From Dictyostelium discoideum (taxonomy: Eukaryota): DNA of 64,000 nt. Shown here piece by piece: positions 14,884 to 17,229 of this stretch; the stretch's first letter is position 1, and the number at the start of each line of letters is the position of its first letter. The position numbers and the translations under genes were made by a program. The notes beneath the pieces were generated by a model. It was not told the DNA's origin and searched no databases. It saw only the letters and a program-made list of their open reading frames with translations. The stretch spans positions 3,232,001-3,296,000 of the forward strand of contig CM000151.3 in NCBI GenBank assembly GCA_000004695.1, written 5' to 3'.

Positions 14884-14941
14884 GATTATTTTTTATTTTT
14901 TTACCTTTTATCTTTTTTTTTTAAAAAAACTATTAATATAT

Positions 14942-16038
14942 GTCCCATGCCAAAATTACCATATTAATTTCAGCAGCTATATTAATTTTGGCATGGGACT
15001 TATGTCTGCCAAAATTACCGTATTAATTTCAGCAGCCATATTAATTTCAGCATGTACATAGCTGCCAAAATTAATATGGTAATTTTGGCATAGAAAAAAA
15101 AAAAAAGTCAAAGTCATTTAATTAATAATCATCTCAAATATAAACAAAATTTTAGTACTAAAATTATTATTATTATTATTTTTATTATAATAATTATAAT
15201 AATAAAAAAAAAAAAAAAAAAAATTTTCATATTATTTTATTTATATCTTTTATTTATTTTTATCTTTTTATTTTTATTATTAATTTTATAATTTATTTTC
15301 ATTTCTTTTTTTTTTAGTTGATATATTTTTTTATTATTCATTTATGTCCACGGCTCACAAAAAAAAAAATTAAAAATAAAAAAAAAAATTAAAAATAAAA
15401 AAAAAAAAAAAAAAAAAAAATTAAAATAATTTTTTTTTTTTAATTTTTTATTTTAATTATTGACTCTTCTACTTTCTCTTTTGTTACTAACAGATGAAGT
15501 TTCGTTTGAAAATCTTTTGGTAAAATCAGCATCAGATTGTAATTGATTAGCTCTTTTTTTACCCGTTTTGTTTTTGTTTGATTGAGTTGTGATTCCACCA
15601 TTATTGGAAGTTGTTGCAGCTTCATGTGTTGATCTAACTTCGGTGGTAGAGTGCTCGATTGCTTTTTCAACTAGGTCATCTGTTGATTTTCTTTTGGTTA
15701 TTTCGATATCCCTTTGCAATTTATTTTACTTGTCTCCGCCTCTCTAAATTCAACATTTACTTTGTACTTCAAATCATTTTTATCAATAGTAACTTCGTTA
15801 AATAATACACCAAATTCATCACTTTGATTGAATTCAACATCTTTAAATTCCAAAAAAGCGACATCTTCGGGTGGAAAAATAAAAAAATAAAAAAAAAAAA
15901 TACTTTTTAATTTTTTTAATTTTTTTTTTATATTTTTTTTTTTAATTTTTTTTTTTTATTTTATTTTTTAAAGTTTCGAACAATTATATATAAAAAAAAA
16001 GTAAAAGATATCCCTTCGGTCAATTAAATAATAGTAAT

Positions 16039-16082
<44 letters not shown>

Positions 16083-16084
16083 TA

Positions 16085-16181
<97 letters not shown>

Positions 16182-16749
16182 CTTAAATATACAAAAAAAA
16201 AATAAAAAAATAAAAAAATAAAAAAAATAAAAAAAAAAAAATAGAATGAAATGAAATAAAATAAAATAAAAAAAAGAAATACAGAATTTCTTTAAAGAAA
16301 CTTATTTCGAAATTGTTTAAACAATCATACAGTTTAAAATTAAATAAATTGTTTTAAACCACCACTTTTTTTGAACACATGAAAATAAATAAGAAATAAA
16401 AATAAAAAGATAAAAAAAGATTTTTTTTTTTTTTTTATTTTATAATTATTCTTGTCATCAGTATTGTTACTGTAATTAATCCCATGAGTTTTTTTTTATT
16501 ATTTTTAATTCTTTTATATTTGAGATGATTATTAATTAAATGACTTTGAGTTTTTTTTTTATTTTTCTATGCCCAAAATTACCATATTAATTTCGGCAGC
16601 CATATTAATTTCAGCCTAAAATAGTTGGTCTGTGCATGCCAAAATTAATATGGCTGCTGAAATTAATGTGGTAATTCTAGCAGACATAAGTCCCATGCCA
16701 AAATTACCATATTAATTTCAGCAGCCATATTAATTTTGGCATGGGACAA
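14942..16749. mobile_element. Candidate non-autonomous DNA transposon (~1.8 kb) bounded by ~155-180 bp terminal inverted repeats that themselves contain nested palindromes
   Basis: 14942-15095 (tgtcccatgccaaaattaccatattaatttcagcagc...ctgccaaaattaatatggtaattttggcatag) is the inverted complement of 16571-16749 at roughly 85 percent identity. The termini GTCCCATGCC...GGCATGGGAC are identical. The interior has the (ATA)n array 16036-16170, poly(A) tracts and only short degenerate ORFs (15440..15719, basic Ser/Thr-rich; no DDE signature). The element interrupts a promoter segment that is intact upstream of the paralogous gene at 14066-14170. Confidence 0.5.
16036..16170. repeat. (ATA)n / (AAT)n microsatellite, ~45 units
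   Basis: Direct reading: ataataataata... from ~16036 to ~16170, with a single aac interruption near 16079. Confidence 0.9.
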
Positions 16750-17229
16750 ATATATATTAATATTTTTTTTTTTTCTATAGTTTATAATAAATATATATTT
16801 TTTACCTTTTTAAATTATATTTCAATTTTTTTATAATTAAATAAATAAAAAATAGTAGCTAGAAAGAAAATAAAAAAAAAAATTAAAAAAAAAAAAAATC
16901 ACCAATCAACGCCTCACAAAATTACTTTTCACGGATTTATCCCATCAACAATGTATCTTTTAAATTATAAAATAAAATATATTAAAATTATTAAAAATAT
17001 AAAAAAAAAAAAATAATTAAAATTGTAAAATTAACCAATTAAATATAAGTCAATTTTACACATTATACAACTCATAAATATCTTGTTAATACTAATAATT
17101 TATTTAATTTTTTTGATATGTTCTAAACAGAACACAATAATAATAATTCAAAAATAATTAATAATAATTCAAAATATAGTTTTGTTTTCAACTCTCTCAC
17201 AATAATTAGTTATAATACGTATATTATAG

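Follow-up and report, generated by a model that had tools for sequence, protein, structure and literature searches.

The region upstream of the small peptide gene DDB_G0273241, in the 64,000-nucleotide stretch of Dictyostelium discoideum DNA analysed here (referred to below as the window), very probably carries a non-autonomous thug-S transposon that entered the sequence AATATA by cut-and-paste and duplicated these 6 bp in the NC4/AX4 lineage. A preliminary description of this DNA had proposed that a transposon with terminal inverted repeats (TIRs) lies in the upstream region of one of several peptide paralogues, and this proposal is borne out by target-site duplications (TSDs), by further genomic copies and by wild isolates that have the empty site. 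Publications already cover the element family, its miRNAs and the exact miRNA locus in the window, and the significance of the work extends little beyond the annotation of a model-organism reference genome. The useful refinements are the exact boundaries, a 6-bp TSD seen in four copies, the true empty site, the recognition that the internal open reading frame (ORF) of this copy is dead, and the finding that the mir-7131 hairpin lies at one end only. The coordinates of all features are collected in Table 1.

Table 1 Features of the putative thug-S copy, its target site, the adjacent peptide genes and related elements at other loci (window positions unless a locus is named)
Feature	Position	Strand	Remarks
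DNA transposon copy assigned to thug-S, non-autonomous	14941..16748	.	TGTCCC...GGGACA
Left TIR	14941..15144	.	local alignment
Left TIR, palindrome	14941-14999
Left TIR, direct sub-repeat (~60 bp)	15007-15047
Left TIR, inverted partner	15063-15091
Right TIR	16513..16748	.	local alignment
TSD, left copy, AATATA	14935..14940	.	flanks element; once in L008 empty site
TSD, right copy, AATATA	16749..16754	.	flanks element; once in L008 empty site
thug-S ORF remnant	15453..15864	-	about 160 aa when intact; ORF list and multi-copy alignment
(AAT)n microsatellite in element	16030..16178	.	length varies between copies
miRNA_can_D3 hairpin	16586..16671	+	-3p 16586-16606, -5p 16649-16671; exact matches
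mir-7131 precursor hairpin	16645..16733	.	Rfam RF03716; inner sub-repeat and terminal palindrome, ~42-bp stem
Peptide gene DDB_G0273241	14689..14883 (incl. stop codon)	-	ORF, 64 aa, signal peptide and 6-Cys mature part
Retained spacer	14884..14940	-	57 bp; in gene orientation TATATTAATAG-T7-A10-GATAAAAGGTAAAAAAATAAAAAATAATC-ATG
Displaced upstream segment	16755..16820	-	ends in box TTTTTACCTTTTTAAATT; paralogue and wild-isolate alignments
Peptide paralogue	13867-14064	-	pseudogene, frameshift
Peptide paralogue	18272-18466	-	intact
Peptide paralogue	19287-19473	-	pseudogene, stop and frameshift
Empty site of the preliminary description	14065..14170	-	upstream of frameshifted paralogue 14064-13867
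Best paralogous empty site	19474..19620	-	upstream of pseudogenised paralogue 19473-19287
Complete copy	L001 3061-5040		unrelated site, TSD ATTAAC
Complete copy	L004 3981-5544		unrelated site, TSD CATATT
Diverged thug-like element	L007 4452-6188 (GCA_054859355.1)		same 18-bp tips, TSD TTTGGT, 70-78% identical

Local alignment of 14930-15160 with the reverse complement of 16480-16770, running from the tips inward, gave a score of 267, so that the ends do align as inverted repeats, and a 36-mer, GTCCCATGCCAAAATTACCATATTAATTTCAGCAGC, is present at two places in the window (14942 and 16690) and in none of 100 shuffles. The element, first estimated at 1.8 kb, measures 1,808 bp. Its arms, put at ~160 bp in the preliminary description, come to about 204 bp on the left and about 236 bp on the right, with the greater length of the right TIR due chiefly to a 26-bp insertion together with small indels. 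The right end had been placed at 16749; the element instead stops at 16748, the A of GGGACA, and starts at 14941, the T of TGTCCC. Perfect 18-bp tips, TGTCCCATGCCAAAATTA, are present in all copies compared, and no further thug fragments were found within the window.

Perfect 6-bp TSDs flank four of four complete copies, each at an unrelated locus (AATATA in the window, ATTAAC at L001, CATATT at L004 and TTTGGT at L007), as expected of the fixed-length duplication of a class II cut-and-paste transposon; in DNA of the window's base composition (78% A+T), 6 bp would match by chance with a probability of about 0.33^6 = 0.0013 per copy. The 9-bp palindrome TATTAATAT, which had been suggested as a possible target duplication, is a different matter, as neither of its copies lies directly against the element and the second belongs to the native target. 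This is seen at the paralogue at 19473, where the upstream region reads TATTAATGTATAATAATATTTT, and in the wild-isolate locus L008, and alignment of filled against empty site yields the 6-bp AATATA instead. When the element and one AATATA were removed in silico, the resulting upstream sequence aligned across the junction to three paralogues, with that at 19473 giving the best match. The empty site originally identified at the neighbouring paralogue is indeed uninterrupted at 14064, but the 14064 gene is itself frameshifted and 19473 is the closer match.

The neighbouring V-ATPase d gene (vatD), by way of its protein variant P0131, led to the orthologous loci in three assemblies of wild isolates labelled 'D. 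discoideum', and in all three (L008 and L009 among them) the upstream region of the peptide gene is uninterrupted. The alignment of the window to L008 stops at 14941 and restarts at 16749, the two pieces overlapping by 7 bases in L008, over the 6-bp target, and the L008 empty site reads ...aaaaaactattAATATAtattttttt...tttttttacctttttaaatt, with AATATA present once. Identity of these isolates to the window is about 82% in the spacer and 88% near vatD. Since each has a single peptide gene, the orthologue of their empty site is, strictly, that of the gene from which the duplicated peptide genes descend and not that of the copy at 14883. The proposed pair of filled and empty sites is thus upheld by the paralogues, by the wild-isolate breakpoints at 14941/16749 and by the copies at unrelated sites.

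Those other copies, which the preliminary description had suggested should be counted, were found by fetching the loci of homologues of the interior ORF; such homologues are present on AX4 chromosomes 2, 3 and 5 as well as in further assemblies. Complete copies were recovered in this way at unrelated sites, with lengths of 1.56-1.98 kb. They also bear on the idea that the inverted repeats are a local product of the tandem amplification of the peptide genes, through duplication and inversion and without any transposition. The locus is unstable, with four paralogues against one in wild isolates, and it lies within the AX4 chromosome 2 duplication, as that idea would lead one to expect; but a 1.56-1.98-kb unit that is found again at unrelated loci, each time with other flanks and another TSD, and whose breakpoints are exact and marked by a 6-bp duplication, leaves it with virtually no credibility. 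The diverged element at L007, the ends of which are symmetrical, may be thug-T or a sister-species variant.

The sole coding content of the copies is a short ORF, for which the longest gene model has 178 aa. In the window copy its start codon was lost in a ~58-bp deletion and a 1-nt frameshift is present near 15718, which makes this copy non-autonomous and, by itself, inert. A Pfam scan of the element ORFs, intact homologues included, returned no domain and no transposase. Since no transposase is encoded in the element, it would have been moved in trans by a separate enzyme. The autonomous, transposase-encoding relative whose existence had been envisaged did not turn up in the fetched loci: among ORFs of at least 180 aa around L001, L004, L005 and L007, precomputed Pfam marks indicated no integrase or transposase partner. 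What these marks did include were retrotransposon RT domains in L005 and, beside the L004 copy, a 615-aa gene with a weak DUF5906 match. The 615-aa gene (L004 1720-3762; DUF5906 being of the primase-helicase-type NTPase) lies about 220 bp from the thug-S copy and may be part of another mobile element. Copies also differ greatly in their (AAT)n tract, which has about 45 units in the window copy, is shorter in L001 and is missing from L004. Classification of the element as a MITE was considered and set aside, given copies of 1.56-1.98 kb with a conserved short ORF as against the non-coding MITEs of under about 800 bp.

The name of the element comes from concordant miRNA, Rfam and ORF evidence, which lends indirect support to the assignment of 14941-16748 to thug-S. 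According to the citing text in PMC5633606, thug-S is a class of D. discoideum DNA transposon defined by Glockner et al. 2001, and multicopy miRNAs are reported to be located in it (PMC4894637, Meier et al. 2016; PMC6161686). The two mature sequences of miRNA_can_D3, AUUAAUUUCGGCAGCCAUAUU and UAUGGCUGCUGAAAUUAAUGUGG (PMC4894637 Table 2), match the window at 21/21 and 23/23 bases, both within the right TIR. The published S4 table lists chr2 3248586..3248606 and 3248649..3248671 on the plus strand as one of six D3 loci in AX4 (PMC4894637), and for both small-RNA loci these coordinates equal the window coordinates plus 3,232,000. The window thus corresponds to about 3,232,001-3,296,000 of AX4 chromosome 2 and carries the miRNA loci reported for thug-S, as exact matches at their published coordinates. 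The Rfam model RF03716 (mir-7131), whose gathering score is 74, matches at 93.8 bits on one strand and 93.1 on the other, with a sequence near-identical to the consensus; it is also above the cut-off in L001, L004 and L006, at the same single end, and finds no match at the left end, in the L007 element or in the L008 empty locus. A literature query combining mir-7131 with Dictyostelium found no paper. In dictyBase-derived tables DDB_G0271154_TE is a 'thugS element', and one of the ORF homologues, DDB_G0271172, is numbered close to it. The family is multicopy and dispersed, as thug-S should be, with its ORF homologues, six D3 loci in AX4 and the copies at L001 and L004.

These matches sit on the following terminal architecture. 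Each arm opens with a 59-bp near-palindrome, in which 17-bp stems (GTCCCATGCCAAAATTA / TAATTTTGGCATGGGAC) enclose a 24-nt core, and inward of this lies a second, ~60-bp copy of the palindrome unit, followed by an inverted partner. The terminal units of the two ends are 57/58 identical in direct orientation, so that the two arms are set apart by an inverted 24-nt core. Because of this difference the left end forms two separate hairpins (z = -10.4 against shuffles) and the right end a single stem of about 42 bp (z = -11.5 against shuffles). This asymmetry is common to all three thug-S copies examined in the multi-copy alignment. The earlier reading of nested palindromes that allow each end to fold on its own therefore stands, since both ends outdo their shuffled versions, but the word 'unusual' does not: mir-7131 and miRNA_can_D3 match at the sub-palindromes, which are therefore known miRNA precursors, and the right TIR folds into the long hairpins published as the thug-S precursors of mir-7131 and miRNA_can_D3.

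Such evidence might be turned around to argue for what is chiefly a miRNA gene locus of the host (mir-7131 / miRNA_can_D3), with inverted repeats that mimic a transposon, as the mir-7131 match is above cut-off and published small RNAs map exactly; those from the D3 hairpin are known from sequencing reads and a weak Northern signal (PMC4894637). We regard this as highly improbable, because the hairpins account for no more than about 160 bp in a unit of 1.8 kb, because unrelated loci hold further copies of that unit, each flanked by a 6-bp TSD of its own, and because the unit is absent from the orthologous site of wild isolates, all of which makes the miRNA a part of the transposon.

We now return to the insertion of thug-S and its setting. 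On the model favoured here, the element would have inserted by cut-and-paste at the AT-rich AATATA, 57 bp from the start codon, and duplicated the 6-bp target. The TG...CA tips, long TIRs, AT-rich targets and 6-bp TSD together would suggest an integrase-like DDE transposase. The distance between the element and the ATG of DDB_G0273241 is indeed 57 bp. Dictyostelium promoters have a layout of TATA plus oligo-dT, and 14884-14940 probably holds the retained core promoter, in the form of a TATA-like box and an oligo-T run, together with the 5' UTR, all of which would have stayed beside the peptide gene; the TSD restores a TATATT adjoining it. The box TTTTTACCTTTTTAAATT, kept in all paralogues and wild-isolate orthologues, now lies 1.8 kb from DDB_G0273241, and insertion of the element would have pushed it there. 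The thug-S ORF and the peptide gene share a strand, which would place a same-strand transposon transcription unit ahead of the gene, and transcriptional read-through from thug-S into DDB_G0273241 is conceivable from this arrangement. That the insertion changed the regulation of DDB_G0273241 is plausible from the layout of the locus. Since the NC4 lineage and the wild isolates differ at this site, they offer a natural filled/empty contrast for the effect of a thug-S element 57 bp upstream of a gene.

The window contains four tandem paralogues of the peptide gene, each of ~64 aa with a signal peptide and six cysteines and all on the minus strand, of which two (14883 and 18466) are intact and two (14064 and 19473) are pseudogenes. 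The peptide at 14689..14883 is 100% identical to DDB_G0273241 of AX4 chromosome 2, and the intact paralogue at 18466 was missing among the annotated proteins returned. A Pfam scan of the cluster peptides gave no domain, exact-protein look-up of the peptide, of P0001 and of a 317-aa ORF gave no record, the same look-up of a 282-aa ORF returned short Logan contigs only, and literature queries with the DDB gene identifiers found no papers on the peptide gene. In the three wild assemblies the gene is single-copy and lies between vatD and a G8/CEMIP-like gene, with a spacer of 2.3-4.2 kb between these neighbours as against 8.7 kb in the window, which points to recent amplification and decay of the peptide cluster in the NC4 lineage.

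Three diverged wild assemblies with one peptide gene lack the insertion, which must accordingly be younger than the expansion of the gene family in the NC4 lineage; the proposed order of events would be tandem amplification to four copies, followed by the entry of thug-S in NC4/AX4. Two of the six D3 loci of AX4, on chromosome 2 at 2,783,1xx (minus) and 3,248,6xx (plus), are mirror images about ~3,015,900; this fits the known inverted duplication of AX4 chromosome 2, so that the window insertion would be present twice in AX4. Just one other assembly, GCA_054883475.1 (L006), shares the insertion. This was considered as an independent strain, and was discarded as such on account of its only about 3 substitutions in 10 kb relative to the window. 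It is probably the AX2 laboratory strain of bioRxiv 10.1101/2025.08.01.668227, of the same laboratory lineage, and therefore contributes no independent evidence on the insertion.

Several other features of the surrounding sequence were recorded. An uninterrupted poly(A) tract of ~60 nt lies at 13205-13265, within the spacer that separates vatD from the peptide cluster. Two strong hairpins, at 14395-14475 and 14535-14600, are found just 3' of the stop codon of DDB_G0273241, the first with a folding z of -7.3 and weak, sub-threshold matches to miRNA models in Rfam; the two may serve as a terminator or 3'-end structure, or else be precursors of small RNAs. A structured segment at 17479-17609 (+) consists of a long-range stem, CCCUAUCG...CGAUAGGG, that closes an internal 10-bp hairpin (MFE -41 kcal/mol, z = -5.8). 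It has no match in Rfam at E<=1 and no counterpart in the wild-isolate locus L008, and may be an unannotated ncRNA.

Among known transposons, the Ginger2/Tdd group invites comparison. Its members have TGTNR tips, with TSDs of 5 bp in Tdd-4/5 and 4 bp in other Ginger2 elements (PMC2836005, Bao, Kapitonov and Jurka 2010), and thug-S might be a non-autonomous derivative of Tdd-4/Tdd-5 that is mobilised by their integrase-like transposase. The two share a host genome, TGT...ACA tips, which recall the TGTNR of Ginger2/Tdd, long TIRs (260-297 bp in Tdd-4/5) and AT-rich targets (PMC2836005). However, the TSD is 6 bp in four of four thug-S copies, as against the 4-5 bp of the group, the tip reads TGTCC, with C in place of a purine at the fifth base, no integrase ORF is present, and the shared gene model may represent a nested insertion. 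We consider such a derivation rather improbable, and retain a thug-S element moved by a separate enzyme as the better account.

A more ambitious scenario would combine three steps: the birth of a miRNA gene by a hairpin-mediated inversion at the thug-S tip, where only one end pairs with the inner sub-repeat (the L007 element being symmetrical and without mir-7131); the movement of a non-autonomous thug-S by an unrecognised integrase-like transposase (TG...CA, 6-bp TSD); and the rewiring, by the window copy, of a fast-evolving secreted-peptide gene. Taken as a whole this is speculative, and we think it unlikely.

Compared with thug-S itself, the window element is from the same species, belongs to a multicopy family, has the same miRNA loci at the exact published chr2 coordinates and carries an ORF homologous to gene models at thug-S loci; there is no difference in kind, the window holding one degenerate copy with a dead ORF. 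Nor is there any difference from mir-7131 / miRNA_can_D3, the window locus being among the six in the S4 table. In plants and animals, the inverted repeat of a DNA transposon can supply a precursor hairpin, giving rise to TIR- or MITE-derived miRNA genes. The thug-S locus resembles these in that a transposon inverted repeat provides the precursor hairpin, and differs in that its hairpin is formed inside a single TIR, whereas theirs results from the pairing of the two TIRs of a short element.
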